Both the position numbers and the translations under genes were made by a program. Of a DNA stretch of 64,000 bases, positions 3 to 9,415 are shown one piece after another. The stretch lies in NCBI GenBank assembly GCA_965203905.1, contig CBDBDQ010000005.1, positions 7,104,001 through 7,168,000 on the forward strand. The letters are read 5' to 3'. The DNA is from Spirochaetia bacterium. Its GTDB lineage: Bacteria > Spirochaetota > Spirochaetia > SZUA-6 > Bin103. Numbering within the stretch: position 1 is the first letter of the stretch; every line of letters begins with the position of its first letter. The notes below the pieces were generated by a model that saw only the letters and a program-made list of their open reading frames with translations, searched no databases and was not told the origin of the DNA.

Positions 3-452
3 TTCCTCGCCCAGACCTGGCTGGCCGACCCGCGGCTCGCCATCTGGTCGCTGGTGGTGGTCGGCATCTGGGCCGGCCTGGGTTTCAACCTGGTGGTCTA
101 CCTGGCGTCGCTGCAGGCGGCTGATCCAAGCCTGAAGGACGCCGCCCGCATCGACGGCGCCAGCCCCGGACAGGTGTTCCGCTTCATCACCTTCCCACTG
201 CTGCGCAACACCCACCTGGTGCTGATGATGCTGGGCATCATTGCCGCGGTGCAGACCTTCGAGGTGCCCTTCATCATGACCGAGGGCGGCCCCTACGGCG
301 CCACCACCACGCTGGCGATCGACGTCTACAAGAACGTGTTCAACTTCGGCGAGTTCGGCTACGGCGCCGCGATATCGCTGTTCACCATGGTGATCCTGGT
401 GCTGCTGATCCTGCTGCAGCGCCTGCTCCTGCGCGAGCAGAGGATCGACTGA
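3..452 (+). CDS. carbohydrate ABC transporter permease (5'-truncated by window edge)
   Basis: EAA-loop-like DAARIDGAS motif, hydrophobic helices, GYGAAI C-terminal motif; frame open to window start. Confidence 0.9.
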   Translation, partial: FLAQTWLADPRLAIWSLVVVGIWAGLGFNLVVYLASLQAADPSLKDAARIDGASPGQVFRFITFPLLRNTHLVLMMLGIIAAVQTFEVPFIMTEGGPYGATTTLAIDVYKNVFNFGEFGYGAAISLFTMVILVLLILLQRLLLREQRID

Positions 453-1261
453 TGCTGCGCCGCGAGGACCGGGTGCGCGCCCTCAACACCGTGCTGATGG
501 TCGTCGTCACCACGATTCTGATGTTGCCGGTCATCCACGCCTTCGGGCGTTCGATCGAGCCACCCGGCGGCCTGGGCAACTATCTGCGCGTGCTGACCGA
601 CGTCCGCCTGCCACGGTTCTATTTCAACAGCGTCGTGGTCAGCGCGGGCACCATCCTGCTCACCGTGGCGTGCGCGAGCCTGGCGGGGTTCGCGTTCTCC
701 AAGCTCCGGTTCCCGTTCAAGAACCTGTTGTTCATCATCCTGCTGATTACCCTGCTGGTGCCGTTCACGACCATGATCATCCCGCTCTTCGTGTTGATCC
801 GAGGGCTGGACCTCTACAACACCTACCTCGCCCTGATCCTGCCCCTGGCGGCGTTCGGAGTGCCGTTCCACACCGTGCTCACCGCCAACTACCTGAACAG
901 CCTGCCCAACGAACTGATCGACTCGGCGCGCATCGACGGCTGCTCCGACCTGGGCGTGTTCTGGCGCATCATGCTGCCGTTGAGCCTGCCAGTGCAGGCG
1001 GTGGTGATCGTGCTTACCTTCCTGGGGTCGTGGAACAACTACATCCTGCCGCTGATCATGCTCAAGGACCAGCAGATGCACACCGTGCCCCTTGCCGCGG
1101 TGAGTTGGGCTTACCAGGCGGGCGCGCTGTCCCAGTTCGGTGAGATATCGTACGACACCCTGTTCGCGGCGCTGTTCCTGCTGGCGGCGCCGACGCTGAT
1201 CATCTTCCTGCTGTTCCAACGCGTGTTCATCGGCAGCGTCACCTCCGGCGCGATCAAGTAG
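452..1261 (+). CDS. carbohydrate ABC transporter permease (MalG-type)
   Basis: DSARIDGCS EAA loop, WNNY motif, C-terminal GAIK; TGATG overlap with upstream permease. Confidence 0.92.
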   Translation: MLRREDRVRALNTVLMVVVTTILMLPVIHAFGRSIEPPGGLGNYLRVLTDVRLPRFYFNSVVVSAGTILLTVACASLAGFAFSKLRFPFKNLLFIILLITLLVPFTTMIIPLFVLIRGLDLYNTYLALILPLAAFGVPFHTVLTANYLNSLPNELIDSARIDGCSDLGVFWRIMLPLSLPVQAVVIVLTFLGSWNNYILPLIMLKDQQMHTVPLAAVSWAYQAGALSQFGEISYDTLFAALFLLAAPTLIIFLLFQRVFIGSVTSGAIK

Positions 1262-1271
1262 TGCGGCGCCG

Positions 1272-1449
1272 TCAGGCGCGGGCGGGGTGGATCGGATCGA
1301 CCCATTCCACCTTTTCCGGCTCCTCGGCCACGGGGATGTCCAGGTTCACCACCACCGGTTCCTGGTCTCGGCGCACCAGCACGCACTCCAACGCCTCCTC
1401 GCGGCTGGCGTTGATCGCCTGGTGCGGCACGTACGGCACGTAGATGAAG
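1272..1449 (-). repeat. diverged duplicate of the 3' end of the cupin gene (4087-4267)
   Basis: Translates FIYVP-YVPHQAINASREEALECVLVRRDQEPVVVNLDIPVAEEPEKVEWVDPIHPARA* versus FIYVPPYVPHQEINAS...HPARE*; 6 aa changes plus one codon deleted. Confidence 0.95.
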
Positions 1450-1450
1450 A

Positions 1451-1479
1451 TTGACAACCCGGACACGGAAGCGTACCGT
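1451..1479 (+). promoter_or_regulatory. sigma70-type promoter of the NYN cassette
   Basis: TTGACA (1451-1456), 17 nt spacer, TACCGT (1474-1479). Confidence 0.7.
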
Positions 1480-1484
1480 AGAAG

Positions 1485-1565
1485 AGCATCCCGTTGGGAT
1501 GGTTTGCGTGCGGCCCCGTTGGGGTCATGTTGATCTGGGCCCCACTTCGGGGCCCTTTTCTTTTC
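1485..1565 (+). ncRNA. putative small structured RNA upstream of NYN nuclease (candidate RNA antitoxin or leader)
   Basis: Two hairpins with identical CCC-GUU-GGG apex (1487-1501, 1512-1526) followed by an intrinsic terminator. Confidence 0.5.
1537..1565 (+). terminator. intrinsic terminator between promoter and NYN start codon
   Basis: GGGCCCC-ACTTC-GGGGCCC followed by TTTTCTTTTC. Confidence 0.8.
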
Positions 1566-1578
1566 TTGAGTCTGGGCT

Positions 1579-2250
1579 TTGACTGATTCGTATGCAGGGT
1601 TCATAGATGTCGGCTTCCTGCATGCCGAAGGTGCGAGGAAGATTCGCAAGAAGAGAAGCTCCGTCCGACTCCAGGCAGCGGAAGTCGTACGCTGGCTCCA
1701 AAGCCTCACCCGAACGCCGTTCGTCGACGGATCATTCCTGAGGGCCTATTGGTACGACGCGGCTTTTGGCCCTGAGCATCCGCGTTACCGCGACCAGCGA
1801 AAGTTCCTCGACGCGATCGCGCATACACCGGGAGTCCAACTGCGGCTCGGTCACCTCGCGGAGCATCCCTCCAGATTGGAGAAGCCGGTCAGGCAAGCCC
1901 TGGCCTCCACGGCCTATCGTCTTGGCATCGAGCCCGACCGTCTGACCGCCGAGTTCGATCGACATTGGACCTTTCGGCCGGAGCGCCGACAGAAGGGCGT
2001 CGATACGCTGATCGCGCTGGACATGGTTCGCCTCGCAGGCCGTTCGGTGTTCTCCACCGCCGTGTTGATTGCCGGCGACCGGGATCTGGCGGAGGTAGTA
2101 CGCACAACACAAGACTTCGGAGTACGAGCGCTTGTCGCAACCCCGGACGAGGACAGCGTCTCCAAAGAGTTGGCCCAGCTTGCCGACGAAGTGATAGTCA
2201 TGAACCAGGATGAGCTTGAGAAGATGATGGCCGACCGCCTCTCAGCGTAG
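1579..2250 (+). CDS. NYN domain (PIN-like, LabA/DUF88) ribonuclease
   Basis: FIDVGF N-terminus, YWYDA, QKGVDTLIALD, AGDRDL, LADE motifs typical of NYN; TTG start. Confidence 0.9.
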   Translation: MTDSYAGFIDVGFLHAEGARKIRKKRSSVRLQAAEVVRWLQSLTRTPFVDGSFLRAYWYDAAFGPEHPRYRDQRKFLDAIAHTPGVQLRLGHLAEHPSRLEKPVRQALASTAYRLGIEPDRLTAEFDRHWTFRPERRQKGVDTLIALDMVRLAGRSVFSTAVLIAGDRDLAEVVRTTQDFGVRALVATPDEDSVSKELAQLADEVIVMNQDELEKMMADRLSA

Positions 2251-2277
2251 CCTCGCGCCACCGGCCGGGCGTCGGCA

Positions 2278-2382
2278 ACCCTGTGCGCGGCACTGTTCCT
2301 GCTGGCGGCGCCGACGTTGATCATCTTCCTGCTGTTCCAGCGCGTGTTCATCGGCAGCGTCACCGCCGTCGCGATCAAGTGA
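2278..2382 (+). repeat. diverged duplicate of the 3' end of the permease gene (1157-1261)
   Basis: 97/105 nt identical by manual alignment, same frame, ends in a stop (TGA vs TAG). Confidence 0.95.
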
Positions 2383-2435
2383 TTCGCTCTGCCCATGGTG
2401 TAGTCAGTCCTCGCTTGAGATGCCCTCGGCGACCC

Positions 2436-4013
2436 TCACATGCCCCACACGTCGACCGGCACCGCGCCCTGGCCGCGCCGCTGATGCGCCGAGTGGCGCC
2501 GGAGATGGAATACCTTCTCCTCCCAGCTCCGGTTCTCCCGCCGGTCGATGACGACCAGGTGCCCCGCCTCGGCAGCGCAACGATCCACGTACCTTGCCGT
2601 CTGCTCCACGCCCTCGTCCATGACGCTCTCAAGCCCGTTGTACTCGCGGACCACCTTGCACTCCACCACGAACTCCTGCACCCGGCCTGCCAGCGGCCAC
2701 ACGATCAGCAGGTCGACCCGTCCGCTCCCCAGGGCGTACTCCCGCTCGATGCGGCCGCCGCCGTTCACGATCCGCTGCAGGTACGCCTGCAGGAGCAACT
2801 GCGGCCACGCCTCCTCGTACGCGAAGCGGGTCCTCCAATACTGCGAGTTACGGCGGAAGAAGCTCTGAAACTCCTCCATCAGCAAGTCTGCGTCCAAGCT
2901 GCCGTCCGCCCTCATGTACCGTGGCGGTGACAGGTCCAGCGTCTCCTGCGCCGCCCATGCGAGCTCGCGCGGCAGCACCTCGGCGTAGATCGGGTTCGCC
3001 ACCCGCAACGGCGCATCGGGGGCCACCAGCCCCAGGTCGCGTACGTACGAGATATCGCGGTCCGTAAGGGTGTGCCGGTCCGTGCCGCTCAGCATCGGCT
3101 CGATCACCCGTCGCACGCGATCCTCGCGCAGCTTGTCCGCCAGATAATCCAGGTGCGTCACCCGGTTCACGATCAGCTCCTCGCGGGCCGCGGCGATGTC
3201 GTCCGAGGTCACCGTTCGCGAACGGTCTTCGCACAATGCCTTGTTCTCGAAGCAGGCCACGTTCGCCAGCGCGTTCACCAGCCAGGGCTGGCCGCAGGTC
3301 AGCGTCCACACCGCTTCCAGCGCCTCCGGAGCGAACGCCTGGCCCGTGTCCTTGGTGTGCTGATGCAGCAGAGCCAGCGTCTCTTCGTGCGAGAAGTCGC
3401 CCATCCGCAACGACTTCGCTGCGATGTTGAACGGGCTGCCCGCGGCGCCCATCCGGTAATCGCGCGGGTCGCGCATGCCGCACAGGACCACGCTGTGGGG
3501 GAAGCGCGCCGGGCGGCCGGGGTAGCCGGCGCGAAGCTGTTGGAGCACCGAGAGCAGCGAATCACCCACCAGCGTATCGATCTCGTCGATCAGCAGCACC
3601 AGCGGCCGCGGCGACGCCTCGGCCCAATGCTCCAGTGCCACGCTCAACGCCAGGTCCGGCCCGAACTCGGCGAGGGTTGCCGCCCAGATGTCCCGAAGGA
3701 ACCGGTCGCCCAGAGCAGCACTCGCCGCGTTCGCCAGCGCGGCGAGCACCACGCGCATCGCCCGCTGCACGTCGTCACGGGCGGTGCGGGCGGTTTCTAC
3801 CGTAACGTACACGCACCCGTAGTCGCGCTCGTTCAGCAGTTCGGCCAGCGCCAGCAGCGCCGAGGTCTTCCCCGTCTGCCGTGGCGCGTGCAGCACGAAG
3901 TACTTCTTGTCGCGCACCAAGCCGAGCACCGCGCCCAGATCGATCCTCGACAGCGGCGCGATCAGGTAATGATCGATCGGGTTTACGGGGCCGGCGGTGT
4001 TGAACGAACGCAT
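2436..4013 (-). CDS. AAA-like ATPase with C-terminal PD-(D/E)xK-type nuclease domain
   Basis: FNTAGP start, Walker A APRQTGKTS, Walker B LLIDEID, C-terminal REYALGSGRVDL...VVECK. Confidence 0.88.
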   Translation of the reverse strand: MRSFNTAGPVNPIDHYLIAPLSRIDLGAVLGLVRDKKYFVLHAPRQTGKTSALLALAELLNERDYGCVYVTVETARTARDDVQRAMRVVLAALANAASAALGDRFLRDIWAATLAEFGPDLALSVALEHWAEASPRPLVLLIDEIDTLVGDSLLSVLQQLRAGYPGRPARFPHSVVLCGMRDPRDYRMGAAGSPFNIAAKSLRMGDFSHEETLALLHQHTKDTGQAFAPEALEAVWTLTCGQPWLVNALANVACFENKALCEDRSRTVTSDDIAAAREELIVNRVTHLDYLADKLREDRVRRVIEPMLSGTDRHTLTDRDISYVRDLGLVAPDAPLRVANPIYAEVLPRELAWAAQETLDLSPPRYMRADGSLDADLLMEEFQSFFRRNSQYWRTRFAYEEAWPQLLLQAYLQRIVNGGGRIEREYALGSGRVDLLIVWPLAGRVQEFVVECKVVREYNGLESVMDEGVEQTARYVDRCAAEAGHLVVIDRRENRSWEEKVFHLRRHSAHQRRGQGAVPVDVWGM

Positions 4014-4086
4014 TTTTTTTTGGTCCGGCTTCCTGCGAAGGGTATCACAGGCGCATTCCCGACCTGATGTGTCCCAGCCGGCGCGG

Positions 4087-4557
4087 CTACTCGCGGGCGG
4101 GGTGGATCGGATCCACCCAGTCCACCTCTTCCGGTTCCTCTGCCACGGGGATGTCCAGGTTCACCACCACCGGTTCCTGGTCGCTGCGCACCAAGACGCA
4201 CTGCAGCGCCTCCTCGCGGCTGGCGTTGATCTCCTGGTGCGGCACGTAGGGCGGCACGTAGATGAAGTCGCCGGGGCCCGCCTCCGCCACGTACTCCAGG
4301 CGCTCGCCCCAGCGCATGCGCGCCCGGCCGCGCACCACGTAGATCACGCTCTCCAGCGCTCCGTGGTGGTGGGCGCCGGTCTTGGCGTTGGGATGGATCT
4401 CGACCGTGCCCGCCCACAGCTTCTCGGCACCGGCGCTGGCGCGGTTGATCGCCGCCGCCCGCGTCATTCCCGGCGTCTGCGGCGTGTTGAAGTCCAGCCG
4501 CTCGCTCGTTACCACGCGCACGCCGTGCGTACGCCAATTGCGCTCCGCCTCTGCCAT
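4087..4557 (-). CDS. cupin domain protein
   Basis: GAHHHGALESVIY and PPYVPHQEIN cupin metal motifs; ATG at 4557. Confidence 0.88.
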   Translation of the reverse strand: MAEAERNWRTHGVRVVTSERLDFNTPQTPGMTRAAAINRASAGAEKLWAGTVEIHPNAKTGAHHHGALESVIYVVRGRARMRWGERLEYVAEAGPGDFIYVPPYVPHQEINASREEALQCVLVRSDQEPVVVNLDIPVAEEPEEVDWVDPIHPARE

Positions 4558-5588
4558 CCGCTGTCCCCGCGCCCATCCTACCCGCCGCGCGCTGCAAGTG
4601 GCGACACCCGCGCTCGGCCGAAGGAGCACGCCTCGGCGTATGGCTGGCGTGGCTGGCGGCGCCGACTTGCGTGGGCGCGGGCGCACGGCTACCATGACCC
4701 ATTGTCGGATCACGGTTCCAAGGAGGGCCCCTATATGCCACGCTCCGTTTCCGCAGTTTCGCTGATCGTCATTCCCCTGCTGATGGCGACCGTCCCGCTG
4801 CTGGCCAGCGGTACCGAGGAAGGCGGCGCAGCCGCCGGCGCCACGGGCGGCGCCAACATGGCCCTCGCCATGATCGACGAAGAGCCGTACATCGACCACA
4901 TCCACGCCAGCCCCGCGGCCTACACCGCCGCCACCGGCACGGCGCTCGACACCTTCTACGAGGCGCCCGTGCTGGCCGCCCTGGTGGCCGAGGGCAAGCT
5001 GCCGCCGGTGGAGGAACGGATCGGCCGTGATCCGCAGGTAATCCGCCCGGCGTTCGAGATCGGGCAGTACGGCGGCATCCTCAACGACGTCGGCAGCGAG
5101 GGAGACGCCGGACAGCTCGTCGAGGAAGGGCAGCAGCCGATGGCCAAGTGGAATCCGCCGGCCAACATCTTCTATCCCAACATCGCCCGCACCTGGGACA
5201 TTTCCGACGACGGGCTGGTGTTCACGCTCAACCTGCGCCACGGCATGAAGTGGTCCGACGGCGAGGATCTCGACGCCGACGACTTCGTGTTCTTCTACGA
5301 GGCGATCCTCGCCAACGAGGAGATCAACGCGGTGACCCCCGAGCCGCGCGGCCGCTACCGGCCCGGCGGCGAACTGATGCAAATACGGGTGCCGGACCGC
5401 TACACCGTCGAGTACACCTTCGCCGCGCCGTACCACAACGCCGCCGAGAGCGGCTGGGCGCGGGGCCGTTCCTTCGCCCCGGAGCACCACCTGAGCAAGT
5501 ACCACCTCGAATACAACGACGAGTAAACATTCGGTCTACCGGTGTGGGACCGCTGGACACATCCGGACCGGTGTGCTACGAATGAGGT

Positions 5589-7214
5589 GTGGGAGGGTTC
5601 TGGCGGAAAACGAGTGGCTGCACGGCGGCGTGCCAGAGCCAGATGGACGAGTTGCGGTGCGAGGTAGTAGAGCTGCGACGACAGGCGCGCTATTACCGCA
5701 GGATGCACGGCAAGGCGGTAGCGCGCGAGCAACGGCTGAAACAGAAACTGCAAGCGGCACGGGCCAAGCTCAAGGAACTGCGCCAGCGCCTGCGGGAACG
5801 CTGGGCACGGCGCCGCGGCAGCGAGAAGCGAACCAGGAGTGGCGGCGCTCCTGAGGCAACCGCCGCGCCACCGCGGCGCCGCGGTCAGCAACCCGGGGCG
5901 CCAAGCCATGGTCGGCGCCGGCACGCACACCTGCCGGTACAGGTTGAAGCACACGACGTTGCCCCGGACCGGCGCCGCTGCGCGGCCTGCGGCGCTGAGT
6001 ATCATTCGCACGGCAGCGAGGATTCCGAGCAGTTGGAAGTCGAGGTGCGCGCCTACCGGCGGGTGATCAAGCGGCGGCGCTACCGCCGCAGCTGCCAGTG
6101 CACGGCGGCCGCGGCGGTGCTCACGGCGCCAGCGCCGCCACGGCTGATCCCGAACGGCATCCTGGGGATCTCGATCTGGGTGACGGTGCTGCTCGACAAG
6201 TATCTGCTGTACCGGCCCACGCATCGGTTGCTCGCGGATCTACGCACGCATGGGCTGGATCTTGCCCAAGGCACCGTCACCGACGGTCTGCGGCGTCTGG
6301 CGCCGTTGTTCGCGCCACTGCGCGAGGCGCTGATCGAACGCAGCCGCACGAGCGAGCACTGGCATGCTGACGAGACCAGCTGGCAGGTGTTCGAGGCGGC
6401 CAGCGAGGACACCTGCCAGCGCTGGTGTCTGTGGCTGTTCTGGAGTGCCGAGGTGGTGGTATTCACGCTCGATCCAACCCGTTCGGCGCGGGTGCCGAAG
6501 CAGCATTTTGCGACCGTGACGGGGGGCGTGGTGAGCGTCGACCGCTTCTCCTCGTACAAGCGGCTGGCCAAGGATACCGAGCTGGAGTTGTCGTTCTGCT
6601 GGGTGCACATGCGCCGCGACTTCATCACGGTAGCCCATGAGCGGGACGATCAGCAGGAGTGGGCCGAGCAGTGGCTGGCTGACATCGCTACGCTGTATCG
6701 CCTGAACGACGAGCGTCTTGAGGTGCGTGGTGAGCCCGCGCAGTACGCGGCGGCCGATGCGGCGTTGCGGGCGGTGGTGCAGGCGATGGAAGAGCGACGA
6801 GAGCGCGAACTGGCGCAGCAGCCGAAGCTGGCGGCAGCGTGTGCGAAGGTGCTGCGCAGCATGCGCAACCACTGGCAGGGGCTGACGCGGTTCGTCGAGG
6901 ATCCCGACTTGCCGCTGGACAATAATCAAGCCGAGCGTGCGCTGCGCGGCCCGGTGGTGGGGCGCAAGAACTACTACGGCTCGGGGGCGCAGTGGAGCGG
7001 TGAGTTGAGCGCGGCGCTGTTCAGCCTGTTCCACACCCTCGAACGATGGCAGATCAACCCGCGTACTTGGCTGACCGAGTACCTGAGCGCCTGTGCGGTC
7101 GCCGGCGCTCGCGTGCCTGAAGACTACGAGCGGTTCCTGCCCTGGCACCGTCCCGAGGCGCGCTTGCTGCCCCGCGGCTCACCCGCCAAGCTGGTCGACG
7201 ACCGTGCCGCCTGA
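5589..7214 (+). CDS. tnpC: IS66 family transposase TnpC
   Basis: N-terminal coiled coil, CAAC..CQC zinc finger, HADETSW / SVDRF / CWVHMRR / DNNQAER DDE motifs. Confidence 0.93.
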   Translation: MGGFWRKTSGCTAACQSQMDELRCEVVELRRQARYYRRMHGKAVAREQRLKQKLQAARAKLKELRQRLRERWARRRGSEKRTRSGGAPEATAAPPRRRGQQPGAPSHGRRRHAHLPVQVEAHDVAPDRRRCAACGAEYHSHGSEDSEQLEVEVRAYRRVIKRRRYRRSCQCTAAAAVLTAPAPPRLIPNGILGISIWVTVLLDKYLLYRPTHRLLADLRTHGLDLAQGTVTDGLRRLAPLFAPLREALIERSRTSEHWHADETSWQVFEAASEDTCQRWCLWLFWSAEVVVFTLDPTRSARVPKQHFATVTGGVVSVDRFSSYKRLAKDTELELSFCWVHMRRDFITVAHERDDQQEWAEQWLADIATLYRLNDERLEVRGEPAQYAAADAALRAVVQAMEERRERELAQQPKLAAACAKVLRSMRNHWQGLTRFVEDPDLPLDNNQAERALRGPVVGRKNYYGSGAQWSGELSAALFSLFHTLERWQINPRTWLTEYLSACAVAGARVPEDYERFLPWHRPEARLLPRGSPAKLVDDRAA

Positions 7215-8100
7215 GGCGGTGCGCTACTGCGGCCGGCCCTTCAGCGAGCAGGAGCTGCAGTTGATCCGCGCGCTCATCGCTGAGGACCCTACCCGCCATC
7301 GGTTCGCCCTCTCGAAGGTGGTGTGCGAACGGCTGCACTGGCGGCGTGCCAACGGACAACTGAAGGACATGAGCTGTCGCGTCGCGATGCTGCGCATGCA
7401 CCGCGACGGGCTCATCCGGCTGCCGGCGCCGCGGCGGCGTCACTACAACGGCACGCTGCGCCGCCGTCGTACCGCGCAGGCGGAACCGGAGCTGCCGATC
7501 AGCGCCCGCGTCGATGAGCTGCCCGCGCTGCAGGTACGACCGCTGGCCGATCAGCGCGAAGCGCTCCTATGGCGCGAGTACGTGGACCGCTACCACTACC
7601 TTGGCTATACGCCGCTACCGGGTGCGCAGCAGCGCTACTTGGTCACCTGCCAGCGGCAGGTGCTGGCGGTGGTCGGCTTTGGCGCCAGCGCCTGGAAGGC
7701 GGCTCCTCGCGACCGCTTCATCGGCTGGAGCGTTGCCCAGCGCGAAGCGCGGCTGCACCTGGTGGTGAACAACGCCCGCTTCTTGATCCTGCCTTGGGTG
7801 CAGGTGTGCAATCTCGCTTCCACCGTGCTGGCGCGCATCAGCCGCCGGCTGCCCGCCGACTGGCAGGCGCGTTATGGGTACCGACCGCTGCTGCTGGAGA
7901 CCTTCGTGCAGTCCGACCGCTTCGCCGGTACCAGCTACCGCGCCGCCAACTGGACCCACGTCGGACAAACCCAAGGACGCGGCAAACTCGACGTACGTCG
8001 AATGCACACGCTGCCCACCAAAGACATCTGGCTCTACCCGCTCAGGCGCGACTTCCGCCGTCGACTGTGCGCTCCTCTTGATCCGCCCCCCAACCTGTAG
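7204..8100 (+). CDS. DUF4338 (DruA-like) domain protein
   Basis: YHYLGY, RDRFIGW, VVNNARFLILPWV, NLAS, LLETFV, GTSYRAANW, G-T-GRG motifs; GTG start overlapping the tnpC end is inferred. Confidence 0.88.
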   Translation: MPPEAVRYCGRPFSEQELQLIRALIAEDPTRHRFALSKVVCERLHWRRANGQLKDMSCRVAMLRMHRDGLIRLPAPRRRHYNGTLRRRRTAQAEPELPISARVDELPALQVRPLADQREALLWREYVDRYHYLGYTPLPGAQQRYLVTCQRQVLAVVGFGASAWKAAPRDRFIGWSVAQREARLHLVVNNARFLILPWVQVCNLASTVLARISRRLPADWQARYGYRPLLLETFVQSDRFAGTSYRAANWTHVGQTQGRGKLDVRRMHTLPTKDIWLYPLRRDFRRRLCAPLDPPPNL

Positions 8101-9415
8101 ACCGAATACTTACAACGACGATGCCGCAAGTGTCGCCAAGGAAGAAGGTTACGAGACCTGGATGGACGCGTTCGCGGCCCACCATTCCGACCGCGGACAC
8201 TCCGGCTCGCGGCCGGTGGCGCACCGCTTTCCCGAGCTGCCCACCACTGACACCTGGGTGCTGAAGGAGGCCAAGCCGGGAGTCCGCTTCTGGGGCCGCA
8301 ACCCCTTCTACTGGAAGGTGGACACGGCCGGCAATCAGCTCCCCTACGCCGACGGCGTGCAGGTGCTGGTCGTCGAGAACCCGGCCGACGTGGTGCCGGC
8401 CAAGGCGATGGCCGGCGAGCTCGACTGGCCCAAGAACGAGTTCATGGACATCGCCGACGCACCGGCCTACCGCCGCAACGAGGCCTCGGGAGGCTACCGC
8501 ACCCATCTCTGGCCCAGCTATGGCGGCGCCTTCGCCTTCGGCGTGGTGCTCAACTACACCAACAAGGATCCGGTCAAGCGCGAGCTGTTCAACGACCTGC
8601 GCTTCCGCCAGGCGCTGTCGCTGTCGATCAACCGCCAGGAGATCAGCGACAAGCTGTACTTCGGCGAGTCGGTCCCCTGGGTGGCCCCGGTCAGTCCCAC
8701 CTGGACCGGGTTCGAGGACTGGATGGCGACCCACTATGCCGAGTACGACGTGGACCGCGCCAACGCGCTGCTGGACGAGATCGGGCTGGCCTGGGACGCC
8801 GACCGCACCTGGCGCGTGCAGTCGGACGGCAAGCCGCTGGCCATCGACGGCAGCTACAGCAGCAACCTGCAGACCACCGCCGACGCCATGGAGCTGCTGT
8901 CCCGCTACTGGGCGGCGATCGGGGTGCGGATGGAACCGAAGTTCGTGCAGGGCGAGCTGTGGACGGAACGCGGCTTCGCCAACCTGTGGGACGCCGGCTT
9001 CGGCGGTCACGGGACTCCCGAGGCGGTGGCGCGTGCCGACTACCCGCTGAACCTGATCCCGCCGTGGCACTACTACCACTGCTGTCCCAAGTCCTCCTAC
9101 CCGTGGGGCACCTGGTACCACACGTTCGGCGAGCAGGGCGAGGTGCCGCCGCCGGAGATCCAGCGGCTGTTCGAGCTTGCCGATGAGTGGGCGAAGACGA
9201 AGCCGGGCACCCAGGAGTATCACGACACGGTCAATGAGCTGATCAGGTTGAACGTGGAGAACCTGTACGCGATCGGCACCGTGTCGACGCCGCCGACGCC
9301 GATGATCGTGAACAACCGGGTGGGCAACGTGCCGGGTGAGATCGGCTACCTGCTGATGAGCCAGGTGGAGACCTACAACATCGATACGATCTACATAAAG
9401 AGCTGATGATCCTTC

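Follow-up and report, generated by a model that had tools for sequence, protein, structure and literature searches.

A conserved hairpin array and terminator ahead of a stand-alone NYN nuclease gene: a candidate RNA–nuclease cassette with a type III-like layout

We analysed a stretch of 64,000 nucleotides (here called the window) from a Spirochaetia bacterium (assembly GCA_965203905.1, contig CBDBDQ010000005.1, positions 7,104,001 to 7,168,000 of the forward strand) and, within it, a cassette that carries the gene of a stand-alone NYN (PIN-like) nuclease. This gene has no promoter of its own, and a conserved folded RNA array followed by a terminator lies between the promoter and the gene. The structured RNA motif is well supported as a new one, absent from Rfam 15. 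Our preferred interpretation of the cassette as a whole, which we hold tentatively and at somewhat less than an even chance, is that of an RNA–nuclease pair arranged by analogy as a type III toxin–antitoxin operon. The features of the cassette are the following (positions are those of the window).

1451..1479, + strand: promoter-like site, TTGACA (1451-1456), 17-nt spacer and TACCGT (1474-1479), read directly from the sequence
1487..1501, + strand: hairpin 1, CAUCCC-GUU-GGGAUG, from direct reading and folding, with covarying homologous hairpins in relatives
1502..1511, + strand: linker 1, GUUUGCGUGC, from the array alignment
1512..1526, + strand: hairpin 2, GGCCCC-GUU-GGGGUC, from reading and folding; equals helix 1 of the covariance model R1 described below
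1527..1536, + strand: linker 2, AUGUUGAUCU, with UUGA at 1530-1533, from reading and the array alignment
1537..1567, + strand: predicted intrinsic terminator, GGGCCCC-ACUUC-GGGGCCC (1537-1555) and U-rich run (1556-1567), from the terminator scan; helix 2 of R1
1579..2250, + strand: gene of the stand-alone NYN (PIN-like) nuclease, 223 amino acids (aa), TTG start, from its open reading frame (ORF) and its match to PF01936 (E 1.4e-11)
1450..2277, no strand assigned: whole cassette, from the promoter to just beyond the stop codon, taken as the unit of transfer from loose contig ends and flanking repeats

The two hairpins (CATCCC-GTT-GGGATG and GGCCCC-GTT-GGGGTC) and the terminator behind them had been noticed earlier in a reading of the sequence alone, and the letters place them where that reading had put them, as does a terminator scan for the terminator. 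The predicted terminator has a GC-rich stem-loop with a U-run (7 GC pairs, a 5-nt loop and TTTTCTTTTC), and the TTG start codon of the gene follows 11 nt past the U-run and 24 nt on from the terminator stem. The sequence-only reading had also called the promoter near-consensus, which is correct for the −35 box (TTGACA) and incorrect for the −10 box. Because TACCGT agrees with TATAAT at 3 of 6 positions only, our promoter scan, by its own rule, called 0 sites in the region. Hairpin 1 probably forms the 5′ end of the transcript, with a putative start site near 1486. Taken alone, the region is not beyond chance: the terminator scan gave 2 terminator-like sites in 2 kb versus 1.0 ± 1.2 expected, and the 101-nt leader folded with z = −1.59, 13 of 200 shuffled sequences being equally stable. 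In the minimum-energy fold of the window hairpin 2 is paired with the terminator arms, and a GC stem with a U-run still stands at the end. It is the conservation among relatives that carries the region beyond chance.

The conservation of the leader was first suspected because one annotated relative of the protein has an N-terminal extension that resembles the window leader translated as protein. We gathered 80 relative loci from one-genome-per-species contigs, which together with the window make 81 sources; they belong to Spirochaetia, Dehalococcoidia, Gammaproteobacteria, Longimicrobiales, Vicinamibacterales, Acidimicrobiia, Solirubrobacterales, Dormibacterota and others. The upstream regions of homologues, which the sequence-only reading had proposed to examine for covarying hairpins and a terminator, indeed contain both, far beyond the window. 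Within 140 nt upstream of the gene the same order recurs: a −10-like box, hairpins of the form YCCC-GTT-GGGR, the terminator and then, about 10-30 nt after it, the ribosome-binding site and the start codon. The stems vary between sequences (GTCCC/GGGAC, GCTCC/GGAGC, CCTCC/GGAGG) and the loops are constant (GTT, GTTA, TTT or ATT). Nearly all arrays have a GC-rich terminator with a U-run, and the terminator hairpin mostly has the same apex (GGGCCCC-GTT-GGGGCCC) ahead of the T-run. The earlier description of two equivalent loops was too narrow, as the arrays have 1-4 hairpins ahead of the terminator and the terminator itself shares their apex in most relatives (the automatically called chains of 5 hairpins include some spurious first members). 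From start to start the hairpins are mostly 22-27 nt apart, with a mode of 25, and are separated by linkers of about 10 nt; TTG occurs in 42 of 90 linkers versus approximately 15% expected by composition. In 28 of 46 arrays a promoter-like pair, TTGnnn-16..19-TAnnnT, has its end 2-13 nt ahead of the first hairpin, as against 0.3% of positions picked at random within these loci, and the hairpins therefore probably begin the transcript. Between the terminator and the NYN gene a second promoter would not fit. In several Gammaproteobacteria without the motif a degenerate version of the hairpins was seen by eye.

A covariance model of the last hairpin and the terminator (R1) was built from 41 sequences and run over the window and the 80 loci, 575 kb in total, on both strands. 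R1 gave 50 matches at E ≤ 1.4e-5 in 50 of the 81 sources, all of them on the gene strand directly before the NYN start, and the positive sources span at least six phylum-level groups. These matches comprise the 41 training rows and nine new ones (L015, L034, L057, L075, L077, L083, L085, L086 and L092). Four weaker matches were found at the same place (L071, L058, L029 and L027), a match in L036 is an extra repeat of the array, and the only match elsewhere at E ≤ 1 in the 575 kb had E 0.98. Changes on both sides occurred in 10 of 13 pairs, with 80 such cells where shuffles gave 34.6, and none of 500 shuffles reached 80, these counts being taken from the model-fitted alignment, which leans towards structure; sliding the partners lowers every pairing measure. 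With a strict hairpin rule that was written after the data had been seen, 100 hairpins were found in 20.25 kb of upstream sequence versus 69 in 997 kb of other sequence, both strands included, an enrichment of about 71-fold.

The specificity of the motif was also seen in whole genomes. The top R1 match was the NYN site in each of six genomes searched. In the window genome the second match (E 0.0015) and the fourth lie directly before two distant NYN genes (267 and 282 aa; PF01936), and in the five other genomes the lesser matches were array repeats, the conserved leader of a paralog's ortholog and one unchecked weak match. Only one copy of the 161-nt leader exists in the window genome (8 Mb), on which ground we rejected a dispersed repeat as its origin. 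Hairpins with the CCGTTGG apex had long stems in 42 of 1387 cases genome-wide, and control cores did so in 47 of 1341 and in 34 of 1387 cases; this long-stem count gives no sign of many host targets with such hairpins, and a few are possible. Searches of Rfam 15 with window positions 1200-2500 at E ≤ 10 returned chance-level matches only (16-19 bits), and at the gathering score the 20 homologous loci searched gave transfer RNAs and one ALIL element, none of them on the leader.

The protein encoded by the cassette belongs to the NYN family (PF01936, 45.5 bits versus the Pfam cut-off of 24.2). Its AlphaFold2 model has a predicted local distance difference test (pLDDT) score of 91.3, and the best Foldseek matches of this model were 2qip (NYN-type, E 7.6e-9) and the NYN domains of MARF1 (E 1.4e-5), in agreement with a PIN-like alpha/beta fold carrying a conserved acidic cluster. 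Among 21 sequences, residues D60, D142, D148, D167 and D169 do not vary, and D10 is conserved in at least 90%. Since the acidic residues are invariant and the fold is NYN, sequence and model indicate that the protein is likely an active nuclease. Two helices at about residues 101-129 contain invariant residues and are absent from two paralogs of the same genome. In a large protein set there are 468 relatives, most of which are 219-230 aa long, are 55-70% identical and begin at the same residue. A search of NCBIfam with the window protein gave no match. The ORF listing and the contig comparison showed no second gene within the cassette, and the earlier claim of a TTG-started stand-alone NYN RNase without a protein antitoxin agrees with this and with the PF01936 match.

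The cassette is accessory and patchy and is found in varied contexts. Of 24 genomes in the taxonomic family, 5 carry the window-type gene; all 5 are among the 11 of the genus, and none of the 13 of the sister genus has it. The same-family copies sit at different chromosomal places and are 67-95% identical. Relatives in other phyla show 61-64% identity; copies within the genus are therefore hardly more similar than copies from different phyla, a pattern indicative of horizontal transfer. No conserved neighbour gene was found across the hairpin-bearing loci, and the neighbours differ between groups. Aligned to positions 1300-2400, contigs from four public runs depart from the window at 1449, 2252 and 2278, with loose contig ends at 1449 both before and behind this point, so that different contexts have in common a unit that begins at the −35 box and ends shortly after the stop codon. 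Because the contigs of other samples part from the window at 1449, shortly after the repeat at 1264-1437, the promoter does start where the cupin duplicate stops, as the sequence-only reading had it. This repeat (the end of a cupin gene that lies on the opposite strand) recurs at 4079-4252 with 90% identity, and the end of an ABC-transporter permease gene at 1157-1259 recurs at 2278-2380 with 94% identity. Some contigs from other samples fuse the permease end directly with the cupin end, and a relative with 95% identity (L014) has yet another left flank. The spot between the two convergent genes looks like a variable insertion site. The nuclease ORF is broken in 4 of the 80 loci and the RNA motif is retained in all four; three are broken by a frameshift or stop, for which an assembly error is possible, and one (L092) by an insertion. 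At L092 positions 1487-3447 an IS630-like transposase, encoded by two ORFs on the opposite strand (1931-3060), separates the RNA motif and the first approximately 115 NYN codons from the remaining NYN sequence. One metatranscriptome run has about one fifth of the sampled words, and its contig spans 1449-1701 unbroken across the terminator. The same contig includes 328 nt of unrelated sequence 5′ of the promoter, and DNA carry-over is possible; the RNA library consists of assembled contigs, in which transcript starts, ends and levels are invisible.

The typical type III operon, as described in PMC13682666, consists of a common promoter, RNA repeats, a Rho-independent terminator and a toxin ORF expressed by read-through. 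The likeness of the cassette to this layout, proposed in the sequence-only reading, was borne out, the layout being present in the window and in 50 of the 81 sources. If the cassette is an RNA–nuclease pair of this kind, transcription would mostly stop at the terminator, and the resulting stable RNA of about 78 nt would outnumber the nuclease, which would be made only from read-through transcripts because the terminator precedes the ribosome-binding site and the NYN gene. The hairpins would be the nuclease's own ligand, since only the nuclease travels with them across phyla and each NYN subfamily has its own leader. The excess RNA would occupy and restrain the nuclease in trans, possibly after the nuclease had cut the RNA in its single-stranded linkers. 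A drop in RNA supply, for example when a phage shuts off transcription, would then leave free nuclease to degrade RNA and halt growth. By analogy with type III systems, a strong terminator would set the RNA in excess of the protein, as suits a ligand acting in trans, and the same may be said of the modular units, whose copy number varies as in type III arrays. The small protein encoded beside hairpin-less actinomycete NYN genes (see below) fits a nuclease that would need a partner. Of the readings considered here, the type III-like one best explains the kept terminator, the variation in copy number, the mobile accessory behaviour and the protein neighbour of hairpin-less relatives.

A number of points weigh against the type III-like reading. 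All of the anatomy is equally expected of a leader acting in cis, and toxicity, RNA binding, processing, an abundant short RNA and phage defence are proposed by analogy only. R1 had no match in 27 of the 81 sources. MAFFT puts loops of 3-5 nt out of register, and on its unfitted alignment RNAalifold for this reason recovered only 4 pairs (−3.55 kcal/mol), of which 3 had compensatory changes. Whereas the antitoxins of type III systems are pseudoknotted, the hairpins here are simple stem-loops. PADLOC reported for the protein a partial match to HEC-09 (E 5.3e-10, residues 135-215 only), and HEC-09 failed to protect against any phage in the tests reported for it (bioRxiv 10.1101/2024.01.29.577857). 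Thirteen of the 27 sources without a match, mostly from Acidimicrobiia, have a gene for a MrfA-like DEAD-box helicase directly 3′ of the NYN gene, and the nuclease family can therefore exist without this RNA. The family is also scarce on the elements examined, with one distant match in viral contigs, one partial match in phage records and 5 plasmid records of 27-39% identity.

Our computations leave the type III-like reading unseparated from that of a cis-acting autoregulatory leader, which we regard as a serious possibility that falls clearly below an even chance. Under this alternative the nuclease would bind or cut the hairpins in its own messenger RNA (mRNA) and thereby lower its own synthesis; cutting would strip protective 5′ hairpins, the terminator would just keep basal expression low, the short RNA would be idle in trans and the nuclease would not be a restrained toxin. 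Such a leader would require no toxicity. It agrees with the occurrence of the motif once per genome and solely before NYN genes, with NYN paralogs each having a leader of their own and with the lack of enrichment of CCGTTGG-apex hairpins elsewhere in the genome. There are precedents in the self-regulation of rnc, rne and pnp and in Regnase-1, which cuts a stem-loop of its own mRNA. Feedback by cleavage needs no strong terminator, yet nearly all arrays keep one; a number of hairpins that ranges from 1 to 4 would be unusual where the geometry of a leader matters; and the patchy spread across phyla with sharp cassette edges would stay unexplained.

The hairpins and terminator could also form a conditional read-through switch, an attenuator set by another factor or condition (an antiterminator protein, a modification of RNA polymerase, nucleotide pools or temperature), with hairpins that are not a ligand of the nuclease. 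We consider this improbable. The layout resembles that of attenuators and of phage late-promoter units, and neighbouring hairpins can pair out of register because all of them share CCCC/GGGG arms, as the pairing of hairpin 2 with the terminator arms in the window fold illustrates. That alternative fold, however, is still a terminator with its GC stem and U-run, and we saw no conserved antiterminator. Any such factor would have to be universal, because the cassette crosses phyla without a partner gene, whereas an apex and linker conserved across phyla point to one specific reader that travels along, for which the nuclease is the sole candidate. A DNA-level element or chance, such as a remnant of a repetitive extragenic palindrome or miniature inverted-repeat transposable element or a recombination site that moved the cassette, with no function as RNA, could draw on the rearranged spot with its duplicated flanks and an IS66 element nearby and on a leader folding energy that alone is not significant, but is very improbable given that the leader is single-copy in the window genome and five others, unlike a dispersed repeat, that 50 sources show the same orientation, promoter distance and U-run with respect to the gene, and that the stems covary while the loops are constant, from which selection for a folded single strand read in the direction of the gene follows.

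The window genome encodes six PF01936 proteins. Under a strict terminator rule, a terminator-like hairpin lies 18-77 nt before the start in 4 of the 6 genes, against a background of 86 of 12,667 ORFs of at least 200 aa, a rough figure as many such ORFs are not genes. Further NYN genes with a promoter-like site and one or more hairpins are located as follows.

C5:2228831-2229385 (L095)
C5:3318301-3318908 (L097)
C5:5197486-5197773
C5:6751676-6752191

Three of these four pass the strict terminator rule, and the gene at C5:5197486 has a long interrupted hairpin and a T-run by eye only. The terminator stem GGGGCCTC-TTCG-GAGGCCC is common to two of the four. Each of the NYN genes of 267 and 282 aa is preceded by a promoter of the TTGAC type and by a terminator, with one or two hairpins that differ from those of the window. 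The NYN gene of the LabA/OST-HTH type, which is kept across the genus, has no leader terminator in the window genome. We tried the idea that all NYN genes have a hairpin-terminator leader and rejected it, as the LabA/OST-HTH type lacked an upstream terminator in 13 of 13 relatives. An upstream terminator was likewise not found for 4 of 4 further top-scoring NYN genes in other families, and among other paralogs in related genomes 2 of 7 pass the strict rule and two more qualify by eye. A wider proposal, which we consider doubtful, is that stand-alone bacterial NYN nucleases are RNA-gated toxins that make up a large and so far overlooked class, in which each subfamily has its own promoter-proximal hairpin-terminator RNA. 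Produced in excess, this RNA would keep the nuclease inactive until transcription failed, as might happen in an infection. If true, the class would be a fourth type III-like toxin–antitoxin or abortive-infection group, with a PIN-like fold, and the family with CC-GUU-GG arrays would be its clearest member.

Relatives without the RNA have other neighbours. The helicase genes of the 13 hairpin-less loci mentioned above, and the small protein that adjoins the NYN gene in all three of the distant actinomycete loci without hairpins (38-39% identity), are located as follows.

L050, L054, L059-L062, L064-L067, L069, L070 and L072, about 3700-6100 in each: MrfA-like helicase (PF00270, PF00271 and the MrfA zinc-binding family PF09369)
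L091, 1534-2013, − strand: small protein neighbour
L093, 2513-2935, − strand: small protein neighbour
L111, 2202-2504, + strand: small protein neighbour

The NYN gene and the MrfA-like helicase gene may form a two-gene unit, judging by their arrangement. The small proteins are homologous, are 100-159 aa long and match no Pfam family above the cut-off; on a Kitasatospora plasmid the stop codon of the small-protein gene overlaps the NYN start. The small protein may be a protein partner that replaces the RNA. A Sinorhizobium plasmid (NZ_CP023065; L112, 2340-2480) carries an NYN gene of 28% identity that is preceded by a long hairpin and by the terminator-like GGGCTCCC-GC-GGGAGCCC, and that adjoins a RES / Xre-antitoxin pair. 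The DNA pattern of the twin hairpins was found in 9 viral contigs, where R1 gave only 10-17 bits and terminators were absent; these were not counted as members. A few viral contigs have tandem GCCCCGTTGGGGC-type hairpins without terminators, at L152 3241-3281 and L153 9358-9458, for which R1 gave only 12-17 bits.

Between the second copies of the two direct repeats the window encodes a 525-aa protein (2436-4013, − strand) with matches to AAA-type ATPases and a weak C-terminal match to PD-(D/E)XK (PDDEXK_9); it had no match in PADLOC or NCBIfam. An IS66-family transposase gene lies at 5589-7214 (+ strand). A 26-nt inverted repeat (5523-5548 and 8088-8113, 81% complementary) brackets about 2.6 kb around this gene and may represent the ends of the IS66 element.

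The distribution suggests that the cassette is common to unrelated bacteria of marine-host and soil metagenomes, and it would therefore be a marker of gene exchange there. If the RNA gates the nuclease, type III toxin–antitoxin biology would gain a new toxin fold and a very simple RNA with a hairpin unit of 25 nt, and many unstudied stand-alone bacterial NYN genes would gain a first function. Even on a modest reading the protein partner of the RNA is obvious, so experiments on binding, cleavage and structure would be straightforward. The main texts of the papers searched contained nothing relevant on NYN proteins together with type III toxin–antitoxin systems, RNA antitoxins or motifs, anti-phage activity or covariation.

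Several known systems share parts of this arrangement. VapBC and other PIN-domain type II pairs have a protein antitoxin encoded upstream. They resemble the cassette in having a PIN-like nuclease with a co-transcribed partner, and the distant actinomycete relatives with their small protein neighbour come near to them; the hairpin-bearing cassettes differ in having no second ORF. The leaders of rnc, rne and pnp of Escherichia coli, through which these ribonuclease genes regulate themselves, also place conserved hairpins, thought to be recognised by the enzyme, before a ribonuclease gene. These leaders lack both a variable tandem array and a terminator ahead of the start codon, and they belong to housekeeping genes in fixed places, in contrast to the terminator, variable array and mobile cassette described here. 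Regnase-1 (ZC3H12A) recognises stem-loops with three-base loops, and it shares its catalytic fold with the window protein, as does MARF1, whose NYN domains were among the best structural matches. Both are eukaryotic multi-domain proteins with targets in 3′ untranslated regions and no terminator logic, and the identity is 10-12%.

HEC-09 is a candidate defence gene of the NYN type embedded in Hma loci (PADLOC; bioRxiv 10.1101/2024.01.29.577857). It is alike in being a bacterial NYN protein and different in having an extra N-terminal domain, with a match confined to residues 135-215, and the available part of that preprint describes no RNA partner for it. The nearest likeness is to the type III systems toxIN, cptIN and tenpIN, which have the same succession of promoter, tandem RNA repeats, terminator and endoribonuclease gene (here a predicted one) and likewise vary in repeat number. 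According to PMC13682666, repeats may be non-identical, as in TenpI, repeat number varies in type III systems, and these systems are classified by three toxin families, ToxN, CptN and TenpN, still three in October 2026. The window protein joins none of these families, its matches being PF01936 in Pfam, HEC-09 in PADLOC and the NYN fold, and it has an NYN/PIN-like fold where those systems have ToxN, CptN or TenpN. The repeats of type III antitoxins are 34-45 nt long and form pseudoknots, whereas the units here are plain hairpins of about 25 nt. The cassette, which stands outside the three toxin families, is type III-like in architecture but departs from those systems in its nuclease fold and in its RNA, which is far simpler.

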